Assembly: GCA_025451775.1 (NCBI GenBank)
Contig: JANWJU010000157.1
Location: 635-64,634, forward strand
DNA: 64,000 nt
Source of the DNA: Terriglobales bacterium
GTDB taxonomy: Bacteria; Acidobacteriota; Terriglobia; Terriglobales; SCQP01
Direction: 5' to 3'
The translations under genes and the position numbers were made by a program. Under the pieces are notes generated by a model. That model saw nothing but the letters and a program-made list of their open reading frames with translations, ran no database searches and was not told the origin of the DNA. Positions 51,736 through 58,626 of this stretch are shown one piece after another; position 1 is the stretch's first letter, and every line of letters begins with the position of its first letter.

Positions 51736-52032
51736 ATGGAAGCATTGGGAATGATCGAAACCAAGGGCTTGGTCGGCTCGATTGAAGCCGCCGACGCCAT
51801 GGTGAAGGCCGCCAACGTCGTACTGCTGGGCAAGGAGTACATCGGCGCCGGCTTTGTGACCGTCATGGTCCGGGGCGATGTGGGCGCGGTCAAGGCGGCG
51901 ACCGACGCGGGCGCGGCTGCGGCCCGCCGGGTGGGCGAGCTGGTGAGCGTCCACGTCATTCCCCGGCCCCACAGTGAGGTCGAAAAGATCCTGCCCAACA
52001 AGGGCATCGTCGCCGCTGCCGACAAAAAATAG
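51736..52032 (+). CDS. bacterial microcompartment shell protein, BMC-H (PduA/EutM/CcmK-type single BMC domain)
   Basis: 98 aa, [79 protein letters not shown]. This is a textbook BMC-domain sequence. Confidence 0.95.
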
Positions 52033-52059: not shown

Positions 52060-53820
52060 GTGGACAACGATGCTCAATCGGTCGCCGAAGCCCGCGAGTT
52101 GATCGAGCGGGCCTACGCCGCTTGGCTGCAGTACCGGAGCTTCTCCCAAGCGCAGGTGGACGCCATCGTGGACGCCATGGCCGCCGCCGCCACCGCCAAC
52201 GCCGAACGCCTGGCGATCATGGCGGTGGACGAGACCACCTACGGCAAGGTGGCCGACAAAGTCCGCAAGAACCGCTTCGCCTCCGAGCGCGTCTACGGCG
52301 CCATCCGCTCCATGCGCACCGTGGGCGTGCTGCGCGAGCATGCCGCCCAGGGCATCATCGAGATGGGCGAGCCGGTCGGTGTCGTGGCCGCCGTCCTGCC
52401 CTGCACCAACCCCACCTCCACGGCCATCTATAAAATCCTGATCGCGCTCAAGGCCGGCAACGCCATCGTGCTCAGCCCCCATCCGGCGGCCATGCGCTGC
52501 ATCTGTGAGACCGTGGGCCTGATGCGTCAGGCGGCGCTCGCGCACGGCGCTCCCGACGGCCTCATTGGCTGCTTCTCCACCCCCACCCGCGCCGGCACCG
52601 CCGAGTTGATGAGCCACAAGCGCACCAGCGTCATCCTCGCCACCGGCGGCATGGGAATCGTGCGCGCCGCTTATAGCTCGGGCAAACCTGCCTTCGGCGT
52701 TGGTCCCGGCAATGTGCCCGCCTTCATCGACCGTTCCGCCCATCTGGAGAAGGCGGTCGCCGATGTGGTCTTTGGCAAGAGCTTCGATTGGGGGACCATC
52801 TGCAGCTCCGAGCAGGCGCTGGTCGCCGAGCGCGAGCTGCGAACGCCCATCCTCGATCAGCTGCGCGCCCAGCAGGCGTATCTGATGAACGCCCAGGAGA
52901 CCGAGCGCTTGTCGCGCCTGCTGATCCAGGGCGAGCACTTCACCGTCAACCCCAAGTGCGTGGGCCAGTCGCCGCAGACGCTGGCGGCGCTCGCCGGGTT
53001 TGGCGATCGCGTCCCCGCGGCCGCGCGCATCCTGGCCGCCGAGCTGGACGGCATGGGCAGACAGTTCCCGCTCTCGGCGGAAAAACTCTCCCCCGTGCTG
53101 GCGCTGTTTTTCATGCCCGATCGGGATGCCGCCCTGCGCCGCTGCTCCGACCTGCTGCACTTCGGCGGCCTGGGCCACACCTGCGTGATCCATGCCCAGG
53201 ACGACGCCGTGATCCGCGAGTATGGACGCCTCATGCCGGCGTTCCGCGTGGTCGTCAACAGCCCCGCGCCTCTCGGCTCCATCGGCGCCACCACCAACTT
53301 GTTTCCCGCCATGACCCTGGGTTGCGGCGCCCGCGGCGGCAACATCACCAGCGACAACATCGGCCCCCAACACTTGATGAACATCAAGCGCATCGCTTGG
53401 GAGCTCGCCGGGGAGCGGCCCGAAGTCACCGCTGCCGAGGCTGTGCCCTTCGCCTCCCCTGCCTCCGCGACCGCGACCCCCGCCTGCGCCTGCCAGCATG
53501 CGGCTCAGAAGGCAGCGCCGCCCGCTTTGGCCGCGCTTGGCAGCGAAACCACCGAGACGATCGAGCAGATGGTCGAGCGCGTGCTCGCCGCGCGCGGCAT
53601 CCGCCCCCGCCTCAGCACCGCCCCCGCGCCTTCTCCTGCTCCAGAATTCCTGCCCCCGCCGCTGCCGCCCAAGCCCGCGCCCGCCGCCTTCCTCTGTGAG
53701 GCGGACGTGCGCGACGCACTGGCGCAAGGACGCAAGATCACCATTGGTCCGCGCACCATCCTGACTCCATCGGCTCGGGATCTGGGCCGCGAGCGGGACG
53801 TTTTCGAGACCACCGCCTAG
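52060..53820 (+). CDS. CoA-acylating aldehyde dehydrogenase (EutE/PduP/AdhE-N type) with 136-aa C-terminal extension
   Basis: 586 aa, GTG start 27 nt after the BMC-H stop. Motifs: ...[18 protein letters not shown]...[29 protein letters not shown]...[11 protein letters not shown] (catalytic Cys)...[12 protein letters not shown]... The extension holds an amphipathic [16 protein letters not shown] segment. Confidence 0.92.
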
Positions 53821-53844: not shown

Positions 53845-54015
53845 ATGCCGGATGCCGCCCGCCCCATCTGCCCGAAGTGCCACCTCCCCATCCGGGAAGG
53901 CGAGGCCAAAGTCTTTTATGAAGGCAAGTCTTACCATCGCCACTGTGCTCCCCCGGCCGGGAGCGCTGGCGACCCCGACGACCCCTATAGCGATTCCACG
54001 CCCATCAGCATCTAA
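53845..54015 (+). CDS. possible small zinc-ribbon-like protein (56 aa)
   Basis: Too short for the ORF track. Manual translation from ATG 53845 gives MPDAARPICPKCHLPIREGEAKVFYEGKSYHRHCAPPAGSAGDPDDPYSDSTPISI, with TAA at 54013-54015. It has a CxxC...HxxC arrangement. The gene is only weakly supported. Confidence 0.35.
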   Translation: MPDAARPICPKCHLPIREGEAKVFYEGKSYHRHCAPPAGSAGDPDDPYSDSTPISI

Positions 54016-54239: not shown

Positions 54240-56741
54240 TCAGCAGCAGGCGGCGCGCAGCGCAGCGGCAAGCTGCGCCTGCATCTCGCCGCTCAGCGGC
54301 CGGTTCTGCTGGGCGACGTAGAAAACGTCCTGGGCGCGTCCGCCCTGGGTGTCGATCAGCACCACCTGGATGTCGCAGCCGGCGCTGGAGAACGCCGAGG
54401 CCAAGCTATAAAGCAGGCCGGGACGATCCTCGGCGTGGATTTCGACCATGGTGGTGGGGCTGGACGGGACGTCCTCGAAGCGGATTTCGGGTTGGGCGCG
54501 GCGGGCCGCTGCCGCCGCCGGCGCTGGACGCATGAGCTTGCGCGCGTCGGTGCGCCCGAGCGCAACCCGGCGGAACAAGTCGGTGAGGCGATCCGCCTCG
54601 GCGGGATTGTTGCCCAGCATGCGGTTGGGGTCGGCGAAAACAAACGTGTCGAGAATCACGCCTTCGCGGTTGGCGTAAGCCTCGGCTTTGAGGATATTCA
54701 TGCCGAAGCTGGCCAAGGCACCGGCAAAGGAGGCAAACAGTCCATTGCGGTCGGGCGCGATCACGGTCAGACGGAAAGCGGAGAGCGTTGCCTCGAGTTG
54801 GACGGCGACACCTGCCGCACCCGCACTGGCCTCCAGCCGGGCATGCGCTTCCAATTCGGTGCGGGTGTGGGAGTGGAGGTAACGGGCCGGGAAGCCGCGC
54901 ACGAACTCGGGCCGGCCTGGCAGTCCAGCCGGCACTTGCTCGATGCGGTCCGCCTCCAGACCCTGGGTGAGCACCGAGCGTGCGCCGCGATAGGCGTGGT
55001 CGAGTTGTTCCAGCCGCCAAGCGGACCGGGATTCCTCGTCCGCTGCCGCGACTTGGCTGTAGGTGAGCAGGACCAGCATCCGGAGCTGCTCGATGGTGCT
55101 GGCCACGGCCGCCAGTTGGCGGGCCTGTTCGCCATCGCCCAAGTCACGCGTTCCCAGCGCCGCTTCCAGTTGCTGGCGGTGCTGGAGCAGAAATTCGATG
55201 CGGGCACGGGCGTCGGCGGATGGGCCCATCGCATCCAGCGCGCGCTGGATCGAGGCCGCGTGTGGCATCGCCTGCAGCAGGACGGCAGCGCTCAGTTCGG
55301 CGCCGTTGCCGGCTTCGGCCAACAAGATAGCGAAGCGCAGGCGCAAGGGGTCGGCCTCAGCGCGCAAGGGACCGCGCAAACGGGTCAGCGCGGCGAAGCT
55401 GCGCAGTGTCTGCTCATCGGCGGTGAAACGCTGCTCCGGTGCGCCCGCCAGCCCCTCGATCGCCTCCCAGCCGGGCAGCAGCACCGTGAGCAGTGCGATC
55501 TCCTCCAGGGCACGCAGCGCCGCGTCGGCATGGGGTAGTGGCAGCAACTCGGCCAGGGCGGCCCAGCGGGCGCCGGGGCGGGAGCAATATTCCTCCAGTG
55601 TGGCGCGCGCGCTGGCCAGCCGTGCCGCCGTGTCAGCGGCGAGTCCGACGCCGTGGCGCGCGACAAAGGTCAACAACTCCATGAGCCGCTCCGGCTCAGC
55701 CCCGAATTGGGCGGGATGGCGCAAATAGAGCCGATCCTGGACCACCGTGAATTCGGCGTTGGAAAGGCCACTACGATAGTCGTGGTAGGCGCCCAATAGC
55801 GATCCGCCCGCCCGCTCTGCCGCTTCCAACTCGGGCCGCAGCGCGCGCAGCACGGTGCGCGCCGCGGCTGAATAGCCGCGTCGCCATCGCTGCATCTCGG
55901 CCTGGGCCTCGCGCTCGATTTCAAACTCGGCCTCGGGCTCGGCCGCGCCATCCCCGGCTGCAGTGAACGGTGGACGCGCCAGCGCCGCCTGGGCGCGGCT
56001 ATCCACCCGGTTCTCGTCGCGGCCGGCGGTAAAGTGCATATAGCAGCGCACGGTGTTGAGCATCCGCTCCGCGCCGGCTACGCTGGCGGGGGCATCGCGG
56101 CCGCCGATCCGGTGCAGCAGGCGCAGGGCATGCACGTCCATGAGCCCGCCGGGGCCATGCTTGACGTCAGGCACCACGTGATGGGAAGTAAGCTGAAATC
56201 GTTGGTGGCGCGCGCGCACCGCCTGCGTCAATTCCTGGCGCAGCCGCCCGCCCTCCCGCGTTAGGAATCGGGGCAGATCCTCTTCCAACCGCGCCAGCCG
56301 GCTGGCGTCGCCGCCCAGCAGGCGGCGGTCGAGCAGTCCCAAGCACACCTGCACGTTATCGTTGCGGGCCCCCAGCGCGGTGTCGAGGGTACGGACGGCG
56401 CAGTTCAACTGCAAGCCTCGATCCCAGAGGTGCTGGACGAAGGCTGCCATGGGGGCTTTGAGCCCCTCCAACTCGGCCTCGCTGGAGCACAGCAGCAGCA
56501 GGTCGGCGCTGGAAAAGGGAAGGGTCAAGCCCCGGGCGTAGGCGCCCAGCGCCACCAGCGTGGCCGGTGCGCCGGGCGCACCCATGGCGGCCGCGAACGC
56601 CTCGGCGACGATGGCATCGGTCGCCGCCGTCAGTGCTGCATGCACCGGCGCCGGCTCGCCGGTGCGATAAAATTCCGCGCGTGCCGCCGCCCAGGCGGGT
56701 GAGGCCTGCAATGATGGCGCCGGATTGGAGCTGTTGGTCAT
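54240..56741 (-). CDS. glnD: bifunctional [protein-PII] uridylyltransferase/uridylyl-removing enzyme
   Basis: 833 aa. It has an N-terminal nucleotidyltransferase region, a central HD region and two C-terminal ACT domains (...VIAPDRNGLFASFAGALASFGMNILKAEAY... and ...IHAEDRPGLLYSLASAFSSAGCDIQVVLIDT...). Confidence 0.9.
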   Translation of the reverse strand: MTNSSNPAPSLQASPAWAAARAEFYRTGEPAPVHAALTAATDAIVAEAFAAAMGAPGAPATLVALGAYARGLTLPFSSADLLLLCSSEAELEGLKAPMAAFVQHLWDRGLQLNCAVRTLDTALGARNDNVQVCLGLLDRRLLGGDASRLARLEEDLPRFLTREGGRLRQELTQAVRARHQRFQLTSHHVVPDVKHGPGGLMDVHALRLLHRIGGRDAPASVAGAERMLNTVRCYMHFTAGRDENRVDSRAQAALARPPFTAAGDGAAEPEAEFEIEREAQAEMQRWRRGYSAAARTVLRALRPELEAAERAGGSLLGAYHDYRSGLSNAEFTVVQDRLYLRHPAQFGAEPERLMELLTFVARHGVGLAADTAARLASARATLEEYCSRPGARWAALAELLPLPHADAALRALEEIALLTVLLPGWEAIEGLAGAPEQRFTADEQTLRSFAALTRLRGPLRAEADPLRLRFAILLAEAGNGAELSAAVLLQAMPHAASIQRALDAMGPSADARARIEFLLQHRQQLEAALGTRDLGDGEQARQLAAVASTIEQLRMLVLLTYSQVAAADEESRSAWRLEQLDHAYRGARSVLTQGLEADRIEQVPAGLPGRPEFVRGFPARYLHSHTRTELEAHARLEASAGAAGVAVQLEATLSAFRLTVIAPDRNGLFASFAGALASFGMNILKAEAYANREGVILDTFVFADPNRMLGNNPAEADRLTDLFRRVALGRTDARKLMRPAPAAAAARRAQPEIRFEDVPSSPTTMVEIHAEDRPGLLYSLASAFSSAGCDIQVVLIDTQGGRAQDVFYVAQQNRPLSGEMQAQLAAALRAACC

Positions 56742-56849: not shown

Positions 56850-57830
56850 TTACCTACCGGTGCGGGCGACCAGGTACAGCAGGCCGAAAACCACCACCGG
56901 AATCGCCACCAGCATCGCGTAGAACAGCAAGCGCCGCAGCCAGGGGGTTTTGCGCCGCCGCCACTCACTCAACTCGGCGCGTGCGGCCGGCTGCACTTGG
57001 TCGAGATGTTCCAGGTCCCAGGCCATCTCGGCGGCGGTCGAGTACCGGTTTTGCGGCTCCCGCTCCAGGGCCCGGTAAATGACCTCCTGCAGCGCCAGGG
57101 AGATCCCGGGATGATGTTCGCGCGGCGGTGTGGGATGGTTGACCAGCCGATCGTTCATGATGGCGAATGGGTTGCTGCCGGTAAACGGCGTGGTGCCGGT
57201 GAGCATTTCGTACAGGATGATGCCCAACGCATAAATGTCGCTGCGGCCGTCGCCGCGTTTGCCCCGCACCTGCTCGGGAGCGATGTAGTCGGGCGTGCCC
57301 ACCACCTGGGACAGCTTGCCAAAGGTCAGGCGCCGCGCCCCCAGCTTGCCGGCCACGCCGAAATCGATGAGCTTGACCGTGGATCCGGCCGCATCCGTCA
57401 GGATCATGATGTTCTCGGGCTTCAGGTCCCGGTGCACCACCCCATTGCGGTGGATGTAGTCGAGTGCGTCGGCGATGGCGATGACCAAGGGGATGGCCTG
57501 CTCGGCGGGCAGGCGTGTCCGCTCCTGCAGCAGCGAGCGCAGCAGCCGCCCCTCCACCCATTCCATGACCATGTACACCCGGCTGCGTCCGGGGTTGGGG
57601 TAGACCTTCATGACCCCGGGGTGATCGAGCTTTTCTCCGATTTCTTCCTCACGCTGGAAGCGGTCGAAGAATACCGGATCGGATTCCATCTGCGGATGGG
57701 GAATCTTGATCGCCACGGCCCGCCCGTCGCGGGTGTCGGTGGCGCGATAGATGGAGGCCATGCCGCTGCGCGCCACCAAGGCCTCGATGCGGTAGCGGTC
57801 GAGTTGATCGCCCTCTTGCAGGGAAGTCAT
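56850..57830 (-). CDS. Hanks-type serine/threonine protein kinase with C-terminal TM anchor
   Basis: 326 aa. Motifs: ...AVAIKIP...HRDLKPENIM...DFGVAG...GTPDYIAPEQ... The protein ends in a hydrophobic helix, LLFYAMLVAIPVVVFGLLYLV. Confidence 0.92.
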   Translation of the reverse strand: MTSLQEGDQLDRYRIEALVARSGMASIYRATDTRDGRAVAIKIPHPQMESDPVFFDRFQREEEIGEKLDHPGVMKVYPNPGRSRVYMVMEWVEGRLLRSLLQERTRLPAEQAIPLVIAIADALDYIHRNGVVHRDLKPENIMILTDAAGSTVKLIDFGVAGKLGARRLTFGKLSQVVGTPDYIAPEQVRGKRGDGRSDIYALGIILYEMLTGTTPFTGSNPFAIMNDRLVNHPTPPREHHPGISLALQEVIYRALEREPQNRYSTAAEMAWDLEHLDQVQPAARAELSEWRRRKTPWLRRLLFYAMLVAIPVVVFGLLYLVARTGR

Positions 57831-57870
57831 GGATCGCGGGCCGGTGCCCCGGGACCGGGTGCCGCCGGAC

Positions 57871-58626
57871 TTAGGCGCCGCTGGCCTCGGGAATGCGGAC
57901 CAGAACGAGGCTTATGTTATCACTGCCGTCCCGTGCCTCGGCCAGGGCGACCAGCGCTTGCGCCGCCTGCTCGAGGCCGGGGCCTTGGGCCAGGCAGCGC
58001 GCCAGTTCACCGGCGCTGACCGAGCCGTGCAGGCCGTCGCTGGTGAGCGCCAGCACGTCACCCGGCTCGAGTTCGAGCCGGCGCAGCGCCACGGTGAGGA
58101 ACAGATCCGCGCCCAAGGCCCGTTCCAGCCGGGGGGGCGCGGCGGGCCGCCACGGCCGCCAGCTTCCCCCCCGGCGCAGGTGGTCGCGCGTTAACGCCCG
58201 CGCCCGTCCATCGCGCACCAGATAGCAGCGCGAGTCGCCAGCGTGCGCGATCACGGCCTCCCCCCCCCAGATGCAGCAGGCCACCAGCGTGGTCGCCATG
58301 CGCCCCTGGCCGAGATCGAAGACGTGGTGGTTGGCCTCGCGCACCAGCCGCCCCAGGCGCGCCCGCGGCGCCTCCTCCCCTCCACGCGCCGCGGGCGCGA
58401 CAAACTGGCGCAGCAGATATTCGACCGCGGCGCGGGCCGCCACCTCCCCATCGGCTGCGCCGCCCACGCCGTCGGCTAAGGCAAACAGCCATCCCCGCCC
58501 GCGCGGGCCCGCGCATGCGGCCCAACCCAGATAGTCCTCATTGTTGGGCCGTACCGGCCCCGTGATCGAACGTTGGGCGCTGTCGAGCGCGGGCGCCGTG
58601 GTGGGGAGCGTTGGGAGCGGCAGCAT
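57871..58626 (-). CDS. PP2C-family serine/threonine phosphatase
   Basis: 251 aa. ...RPNNEDY...LFALADGVGG...HAGDSRCYLV...LTSDGLH...DGSDNISLVLV... are the PPM motifs. Confidence 0.9.
   Translation of the reverse strand: MLPLPTLPTTAPALDSAQRSITGPVRPNNEDYLGWAACAGPRGRGWLFALADGVGGAADGEVAARAAVEYLLRQFVAPAARGGEEAPRARLGRLVREANHHVFDLGQGRMATTLVACCIWGGEAVIAHAGDSRCYLVRDGRARALTRDHLRRGGSWRPWRPAAPPRLERALGADLFLTVALRRLELEPGDVLALTSDGLHGSVSAGELARCLAQGPGLEQAAQALVALAEARDGSDNISLVLVRIPEASGA

Follow-up and report, generated by a model that had tools for sequence, protein, structure and literature searches.

A candidate shell-docking mini-domain follows an encapsulation peptide in the C-terminal tail of an acidobacterial microcompartment aldehyde dehydrogenase

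The window analysed here, 64,000 nucleotides from a Terriglobales bacterium (contig JANWJU010000157.1), holds two neighbouring forward-strand genes with links to bacterial microcompartments (BMCs). The first (51736-52032) encodes a 98-residue shell protein of the EutM/PduA-like BMC-H type (Pfam PF00936, E 2.2e-28), which shares 72% identity with Escherichia coli EutM over 87 residues. The second begins 27 nucleotides downstream of it and is an open reading frame (ORF; 52060-53820, GTG start, stop codon at 53818-53820) for a coenzyme A (CoA)-acylating aldehyde dehydrogenase (AldDH) of 586 residues that extends into a C-terminal tail. It is with this tail that the present analysis is concerned. 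Following its catalytic core, the enzyme carries an amphipathic helix that aligns with known encapsulation peptides (EPs) and, after a further linker, a small folded mini-domain that resembles EutQ's N-terminal region. We consider it probable, though well short of assured, that this is the AldDH of an ACI-type BMC and that the two elements would together act as a bivalent tether between cargo and shell.

The core (residues 1-446; 52060-53397, forward strand like all features of the ORF) is of the type-I, EutE-like, CoA-acylating kind. It matches Pfam PF00171 (E 2e-23), its catalytic Cys248, embedded in the motif TICSSEQ, is invariant in 63 homologs, and AlphaFold2 models most of it with a predicted local distance difference test (pLDDT) score above 85. 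The best NCBIfam model is TIGR02518 (acetylating acetaldehyde dehydrogenase), which corresponds to what Sutter et al. (2021) call the 'type I' BMC AldDH; the score of 565.2 bits does not reach the curated equivalog cut-off of 620.1, so that we regard the protein as a member of a divergent clade. The alignment starts at residue 2 of the model and there is no N-terminal extension. A protein that is 100% identical has been deposited in GenBank as 'aldehyde dehydrogenase family protein [Terriglobales bacterium]', from metagenome-assembled genome (MAG) GCA_036553825.1 (contig DATBOM010000052.1).

Past the core, the tail opens with linker 1 (residues 447-498; 53398-53553), which is Ala/Pro-rich, variable in length and predicted to be disordered, with AlphaFold2 pLDDT below 50 for residues 456-499. 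There follow the EP helix (residues 499-514; 53554-53601) and linker 2 (residues 515-542; 53602-53685), a Pro-rich segment with pLDDT below 50 for residues 517-530 and a conserved 11-residue stretch at its end. The tail closes with the terminal mini-domain (residues 543-586; 53686-53817), a EutQ-N (H1/H2)-like element for which we propose a role in shell docking and of which residues 543-583 (53686-53808) make up the conserved block. A first-pass annotation of the window had already divided the tail into four parts, all of which are present in the ORF with coordinates that differ by at most 6 nucleotides (the helix, placed at 53548, in fact starts at 53554, and the final segment FLCEADV...DVFE, residues 544-583, placed at 53686, starts at 53689). 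In the full-length AlphaFold2 model, built on a 63-sequence alignment, the helix covers residues 501-511 with a pLDDT of about 77, and residues 541-586 reach 92-97.

Conservation was measured as the frequency of the commonest residue in each column of the 63-sequence alignment. By this measure the core stands at 0.79, linker 1 at 0.34, the helix at 0.54, linker 2 at 0.45 (climbing to 0.61 at residues 536-542) and the module at 0.70, and the islands of conservation coincide exactly with helix and block. Among the 120 best homologs, which extend down to 57% identity, every one of the 119 full-length proteins keeps the terminal block, with the pattern FV(C/S)EA(D/E)(V/I)R...KIxxGxKTIITPAARDL...VF, and in most of them a helix with the pattern (I/V)ER(F/V)LAxK(G) is retained as well. 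Given this conservation, along with the predicted helix and folded block, the tail is neither unconserved nor fully disordered, two of the outcomes that the first-pass annotation had named as counting against its own proposal. These observations also bear on a more mundane explanation, namely that the tail is functionless low-complexity read-through in GC-rich DNA or the product of a mis-called stop codon. The window does have a GC content of 65.6% and abounds in long spurious ORFs on both strands, and some 60% of the tail is Ala/Pro-rich and predicted to be disordered. However, more than 180 sequences, drawn from four orders, share the architecture, and their terminal block is 70% conserved and confidently predicted to fold. 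Tail conservation refutes read-through and mis-called stop alike, and we attach next to no credence to either.

To place the tail taxonomically, we surveyed one genome per species, which returned 80 loci. The block is found in approximately 65 AldDH genes from four acidobacterial groups (Terriglobia, Bryobacterales, Vicinamibacterales and Blastocatellia/Pyrinomonadales), whereas in AldDH relatives from Bacillota, Clostridia, Ignavibacteria and Chlorobi the match is confined to the stretch from residue 1 to about 447. Bar two probably mis-binned MAGs, tail-bearing orthologs in the survey are confined to acidobacterial orders. The two exceptions, one labelled Heliomicrobium sp. MAG (L022) and the other uncultured Clostridia (L047), each have an AldDH with a full acidobacterial-type tail and an upstream BMC-H, which suggests mis-binning or mis-classification rather than transfer. 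Adjacency to a shell gene is equally persistent: in more than 60 loci, a BMC-H that is 71-94% identical to that of the window lies directly upstream of nearly every module-bearing AldDH, and the pair recurs in otherwise unrelated neighbourhoods in different genomes.

Within the otherwise variable and disordered linker 1, a CACQH motif (C-x-C-x-H; residues 476-480, 53485-53499) forms a conservation island of its own, at 0.65 versus 0.34 for the linker. Of 144 tails, 110 contain a C-x(1,2)-C motif, which precedes the EP in 99 of 102; relatives from subdivisions 4 and 6 lack it. CGCG follows the EP in two relatives, and in a Bacillota type-I AldDH (L062) the residues CPPC stand ahead of the terminal EP. 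The motif may be a metal or disulfide site, and conserved Cys/His residues have been noted in other ACI proteins (Sutter et al. 2021).

What kind of element is the helix? Residues 499-514 align column for column with the EPs found at the extreme C-terminus of type-I AldDHs from EUT2-like loci (SAEIEQIVKEVLRRLS, SREEITEIVKRILAEMK, EEYINVIVEKILQKLKG, RSVVEMVVREVLGEKGLL), in Bacillota, Clostridia and Coatesbacteria. The alignment to the TIGR02518 model runs through residue 511 and thus covers the helix, and 90% or more of homologs retain R507 and L509. Judged by these alignments, the segment is the ordinary C-terminal EP of type-I BMC AldDHs, now in an internal position, and the earlier description of an EP-like helix is borne out as homology. 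At 0.68, its hydrophobic moment exceeds that of any other segment of the tail and is comparable to the values for the EutE (0.61) and EutC (0.79) EPs of E. coli; however, 35% of shuffled tails reach the same value, so that the identification has to rest on alignment, conservation and predicted structure. The first-pass remark that the segment shares the periodicity of known EPs therefore stands as a description, while periodicity alone is no evidence; the N-terminal sequence of EutE quoted in its support (QDIEQVVKAVLLKM) is correct. The same annotation spoke of a 136-residue extension. A tail of this kind does follow the core but, since the helix is an ordinary type-I EP, the part that goes beyond the normal type-I layout (linker 2 plus the block) comes to only about 75 residues. 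As an aside, one Bryobacteraceae AldDH (L009, 2134-3933) carries two tandem EP-like helices (VVAAVERYLAKRG, ASVVDRFLAGKRG) ahead of the module.

The block also folds on its own. Modelled in isolation with AlphaFold2, it reaches a pLDDT of 95.6 and a predicted template modelling score of 0.72, and its roughly 42 residues adopt a beta-alpha-beta-beta-alpha-beta topology with helices at 547-556 and 570-578. A Pfam scan of the 45-residue block returns no family, and a Foldseek search against solved structures gives no match to the module with E <1. When PDB sequences are searched with a profile, the best match (E 0.021, over 19 of 45 positions) is to the peripheral subunit-binding domain (PSBD) of a branched-chain E2 protein (GRKTLATPAVRNLAMENNI). 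This raises the question of whether the block is a PSBD/E3_binding-like element that recruits a partner enzyme, as happens in the E2 chains of 2-oxoacid dehydrogenases, the more so as the layout of beads on Ala/Pro strings is alike and as the N-terminal module of a EutQ-like protein (L065) weakly matches Pfam E3_binding (E 0.033). Yet the match spans the second module helix only, the E-values are not significant, Pfam E3_binding (PF02817) does not match the block of the window, and no fold in the PDB does either. What is more, the predicted fold has four short strands and stops some 8 residues past that helix, so that the second PSBD helix is missing. With no Pfam match, a merely partial PDB match and a different predicted fold, we reject homology to the PSBD and consider partner recruitment of this sort very improbable.

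Profile comparisons point towards microcompartment proteins instead. With hhalign, a profile built from 30 AldDH blocks matches E. coli EutT 3-41 (probability 89.8%, E 1.8e-6, 41% identity) and E. coli EutQ 5-42 (probability 80.7%, E 1.3e-5), both sequences being taken from the K-12 eut operon; the N-termini of EutQ and EutT themselves align without gaps at 33% identity. When the 45-residue block is compared with 18,950 NCBIfam models, its best two matches, both sub-threshold, are eut families matched at their termini, namely TIGR02536 (positions 165-201 of 207) and EutT (positions 4-42), and EutQ 1-62 matches the same region of TIGR02536. We also ran a hidden Markov model (HMM) of the block over 19,701 six-frame ORFs from the fetched loci, confirming host domains by Pfam and BLAST. 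Eight non-AldDH matches emerged at E <=0.036, all of them at the termini of BMC-locus proteins, against a best match of E 0.65 in a decoy set of reversed sequences. The hosts are a Coatesbacteria PduL (C-terminus, E 1.9e-7), PF01923 (PduO-type) adenosyltransferases (N-termini, E 9e-4 for one from Bacillota), TIGR02536-like proteins (C-termini, E 1e-3 to 1.3e-2) and a PF06249 EutQ (N-terminus, E 0.036); PduL N-termini are matched more weakly. Common to all hosts is the consensus (I/L)T-x-x-x-(V/L)R, followed by G and after it (I/L)(I/L)TP-x-A-x-(D/E), with conservation across host families limited to T-P-x-A. Sequence comparison thus supports the view that the block belongs to a BMC-associated mini-domain family, which would include the N-termini of EutQ and EutT and the modules on PduO-type adenosyltransferases, PduL and TIGR02536-like proteins.

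One member of this family had been anticipated: the first-pass annotation likened the block to a short 'xTExxVR...ITPxARD' module at the N-termini of PduO-type adenosyltransferases and, the module having been found there by the block HMM and, on EutT, by hhalign, the comparison proves correct. The Pfam family that it suggested as a check, Co_AT_N (PF12557), matches neither the 45-residue block at E up to 10 nor the module-bearing PF01923 adenosyltransferases; silent even on the latter, the model must be absent from, or insensitive in, the Pfam copy that we used. An exhaustive representative search with the block profile yielded 715 matches, the best 150 of which are all fragments of AldDH tails. 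Searching with an alignment of the E. coli EutQ and EutT N-termini returned only enterobacterial fragments among the matches listed, and tblastn of the block against plasmids a single chance match.

In EUT2-like loci the mini-domain is present on several proteins of one locus, at the N-terminus of the adenosyltransferase, the N- or C-terminus of PduL, the C-terminus of a TIGR02536-like protein and the N-terminus of EutQ (L065 15940-16800; L084 11889-12761; genes after the AldDH in L058, L060, L061 and L062). In L065, moreover, adenosyltransferase and PduL are fused into one protein that bears the module N-terminally. Positions ~112-152 of Pfam PDU_like (PF15953), at the C-terminal end of that family, likewise appear to be the same module.

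This spread over host enzymes admits a reading in which the mini-domain is not a docking element at all but a regulatory or cofactor domain concerned with nucleotide, CoA or corrinoid handling. All of its hosts do handle cofactors (CoA/NAD in AldDH, CoA in PduL, ATP and B12 in EutT/PduO) or, in the case of EutQ, act as acetate kinase, and a ligand function has been speculated for a EutQ-like N-terminal extension in MIC2 loci (Sutter et al. 2021). Against this stand the small size of the domain, with a cross-family T-P-x-A signature that resembles a helix cap rather than a binding pocket, its occurrence at either terminus behind long disordered linkers, and the fact that deletion of H1/H2 from Salmonella EutQ has an assembly phenotype (PMC12487888). 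We therefore regard a cofactor role as quite improbable.

The proposal of a docking function draws on this work on Salmonella EutQ, published in Science Advances in 2025 (PMC12487888). EutQ 1-99, which is sufficient for targeting of green fluorescent protein, consists of H1 (9-21), H2 (22-41), a flexible linker (42-61) and H3/H4 (62-99). Without H1/H2 (residues 9-41), shells separate from cargo and EutQ stays with the cargo; without H3/H4 (residues 62-99), EutQ is found together with shell assemblies but not with cargo. For binding of the EutC and EutE EPs by H3/H4, the dissociation constant is approximately 6-8 uM. In earlier experiments, pull-down of EutM was lost once the first 100 residues of EutQ were removed (PMC4827028). 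In the AldDH, the predicted module helices (547-556 and 570-578) align to H1 and H2, respectively, and a disordered linker lies upstream of the module.

The main rival reading puts the same parts to a different use, in which the mini-domain would mediate cargo-to-cargo contact or self-association and so nucleate the cargo core, leaving the EP helix to contact the shell as the EP of PduP does with PduA. Such a homotypic network would suit the presence of the module on several lumen or accessory enzymes (adenosyltransferase, PduL, TIGR02536-like protein, EutQ) of a single EUT2-like locus; the predicted module has exposed edge strands; and within 10 kb on either side of ACI AldDH genes the module occurs on the AldDH only. 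Nevertheless, we judge self-association unlikely, as it is EutQ without residues 62-99, not EutQ without H1/H2, that goes with the shell rather than the cargo (PMC12487888), and as pull-down of EutM requires the EutQ N-terminus (PMC4827028).

Taking together what the analysis establishes directly (anatomy, conservation, predicted fold, homology and adjacency to BMC-H), we infer binding partners and a hub role for the tail along the following lines. The AldDH would be an enzyme of an acidobacterial, ACI-type BMC, encoded in a two-gene satellite locus with an EutM-like BMC-H, and its tail would present two short interaction elements on flexible Ala/Pro linkers. Like H1/H2 in EutQ, the mini-domain would dock on the shell, at its BMC-H layer. 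The EP of PduP contacts PduA, and the EP helix of the AldDH might similarly contact the shell or else bundle with the EPs of other cargo. Because AldDHs are oligomers, each oligomer would constitute a multivalent tether between cargo and shell. Seen this way, the tail may amount to the EutQ 1-99 hub in mirror image and built into the enzyme, complete with shell module, flexible linker and helix.

A number of observations weigh against bivalent tethering as we have just described it. In Salmonella, the EPs have their binding site on EutQ, at H3/H4, and not on the shell (PMC12487888), and EutQ H1/H2 is described in that study as two helices, to which the model of the AldDH module adds short strands. 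The sequences on which the link to EutQ is built are short, at about 40 residues. On E. coli EutQ the AldDH block HMM reaches only E 0.27, and phmmer seeded with residues 1-48 of that protein yields no significant match to any other sequence, although in-register modules are enriched in the list below the threshold. A profile of 14 modules does match the AldDH profile with a probability of 98.8% (E 5.5e-17), but most of those modules had been selected with the AldDH HMM, so that this figure is inflated and overstates independence. EP and module are not strictly coupled either, given that one acidobacterial AldDH (L080, 10001-11560) has a terminal module on a linker of just 30 residues and no EP helix. 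Finally, the 64-kb window contains one BMC-H, with no BMC-P, BMC-T or second BMC-H found, and a BMC-P search aimed at the ACI main locus returned, among the matches listed, satellite orthologs only. It is the lack of other shell genes in the window that defines the locus as a two-gene, shell-plus-enzyme satellite.

The rest of the window is unremarkable in this respect. A second copy of the AldDH tail was not found in it, and the neighbours, both upstream and at 54240-56741 and 56850-58626 on the reverse strand, are unrelated to microcompartments; their products are a GlnD-like uridylyltransferase with ACT domains, a Ser/Thr kinase, a PP2C phosphatase and an amino-acid permease, with GGDEF proteins upstream. 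An uncalled ORF of 56 residues (53845-54015, forward strand), 25 nucleotides past the AldDH stop codon, shows a Zn-ribbon-like CxxC...HxxC pattern (MPDAARPICPKCHLPIREGEAKVFYEGKSYHRHC...). It is not conserved across the other loci, with the possible exception of a Zn-ribbon ORF that follows the AldDH in L050 (E 0.5). Satellite loci of Pyrinomonadales/Blastocatellia are larger (L040 9500-16000; also L033, L053, L055-57, L066, L068, L069, L073 and L083) and are ordered BMC-H, AldDH with tail, BMC-P, VWA protein, ACT-domain protein, Zn-ribbon protein, DUF711 protein and second BMC-H; the satellite locus L040, too, has a Zn-ribbon protein.

How much of this is new? Sutter et al. (2021, Nat Commun 12:3809, Supplementary Data 2) describe an ACI-type BMC in which the AldDH sits on a satellite locus with a shell gene and has an EP followed by a '~50aa domain of unknown function'. 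ACI was placed mainly in subdivisions 4 and 6; its main locus comprises a PF00596 aldolase with a C-terminal EP, a hydroxyacid dehydrogenase and a BMC-P triplet, and phylogenetic clustering of the AldDH with MIC3 serves as an ACI criterion (Sutter et al. 2021). Candidatus Sulfopaludibacter SbA3, an ACI genome in that study, has an ortholog with the same tail (L026). The tail architecture is therefore already on record, and the new part, on our sequence comparisons, is a likely function for the domain. Likewise, the first-pass annotation was right to call two such elements in tandem unusual as far as BMC AldDHs in general are concerned, but for the ACI type as a whole they are the norm (Sutter et al. 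2021). A literature search of incomplete coverage turned up no statement that the ACI domain equals EutQ H1/H2 or is common to EutT/PduO, PduL and TIGR02536, and no description of the module in the literature on PF12557/Co_AT_N, TIGR02536, PF15953 or a joint EutQ/EutT/PduL N-terminal domain; coverage being incomplete, this absence is weak evidence.

There is also a broader proposal, which we put forward tentatively and consider somewhat doubtful as it stands: metabolosomes in general could use the ~42-residue module as a portable domain for docking on the shell. It would be a second type of targeting signal, different from the amphipathic EPs and common to EutQ, EutT/PduO, PduL, TIGR02536 and ACI AldDHs; fused behind the EP in acidobacterial microcompartments, it would make the core enzyme a hub between cargo and shell, as EutQ is in Eut microcompartments. 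In a more extreme variant, the Terriglobales pair of BMC-H and AldDH would be a minimal two-gene scaffold without a full shell. To our knowledge, the tie between cargo and shell is known for a few BMCs only, through CcmN/CcmM, CsoS2, the PduB N-terminus and, since 2025, EutQ. If the block is indeed the H1/H2 element of EutQ, a domain of ACI AldDHs that had gone without a role would gain a testable one, and the EutQ mechanism would extend past enteric Eut to soil Acidobacteria, PduL, adenosyltransferases and TIGR02536 proteins. The AldDH would then be the organiser of an uncharacterised yet abundant soil microcompartment, and engineers would have at their disposal a tag that is small and folded, works at either terminus and is orthogonal to EPs.

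It remains to set the AldDH of the window beside the systems that it most resembles. Like the ACI satellite AldDH, it is acidobacterial, lies beside a shell gene in a 64-kb window where no BMC-P was found, and has an EP near its C-terminus followed by a domain of about 50 residues. It differs from the ACI catalog in coming from Terriglobales (subdivision 1) and in that the aldolase/BMC-P main locus was not seen, either in the window or through the BMC-P search. Its helix shares the xxE-I-xx-IV-xx-VL pattern of the type-I AldDH EP (IPR013357/TIGR02518, EUT2 EutE), but where that EP forms the very C-terminus, another 72 residues follow here. With EutT/PduO-type adenosyltransferases, PduL (PF06130) and the TIGR02536/PDU_like proteins of EUT2-like loci it has the mini-domain signature in common, although these modules sit on other host enzymes and at other termini, and none comes with an assigned role or a family of its own in the Pfam copy that we searched.

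The closest parallel is with the EutQ N-terminal region. The AldDH block aligns to EutQ 5-42, which corresponds to H1/H2; in both proteins a flexible linker lies beside the module, with an amphipathic helix beyond it; and EutM, the shell partner of EutQ, has its 72%-identical homolog encoded right next to the AldDH. In the AldDH, however, the order is mirrored, with the module C-terminal rather than N-terminal, and it is the core enzyme itself that bears the module, not a cupin/acetate kinase as in EutQ. The helices differ in kind as well, that of the AldDH being an EP and that of EutQ an EP receptor, and for the AldDH docking is argued from the experiments on EutQ. A Selenomonadales EutQ (L065) displays the mirror arrangement within a single protein: module, Ala/Pro linker, amphipathic helix and then cupin, the mirror image of the AldDH tail.

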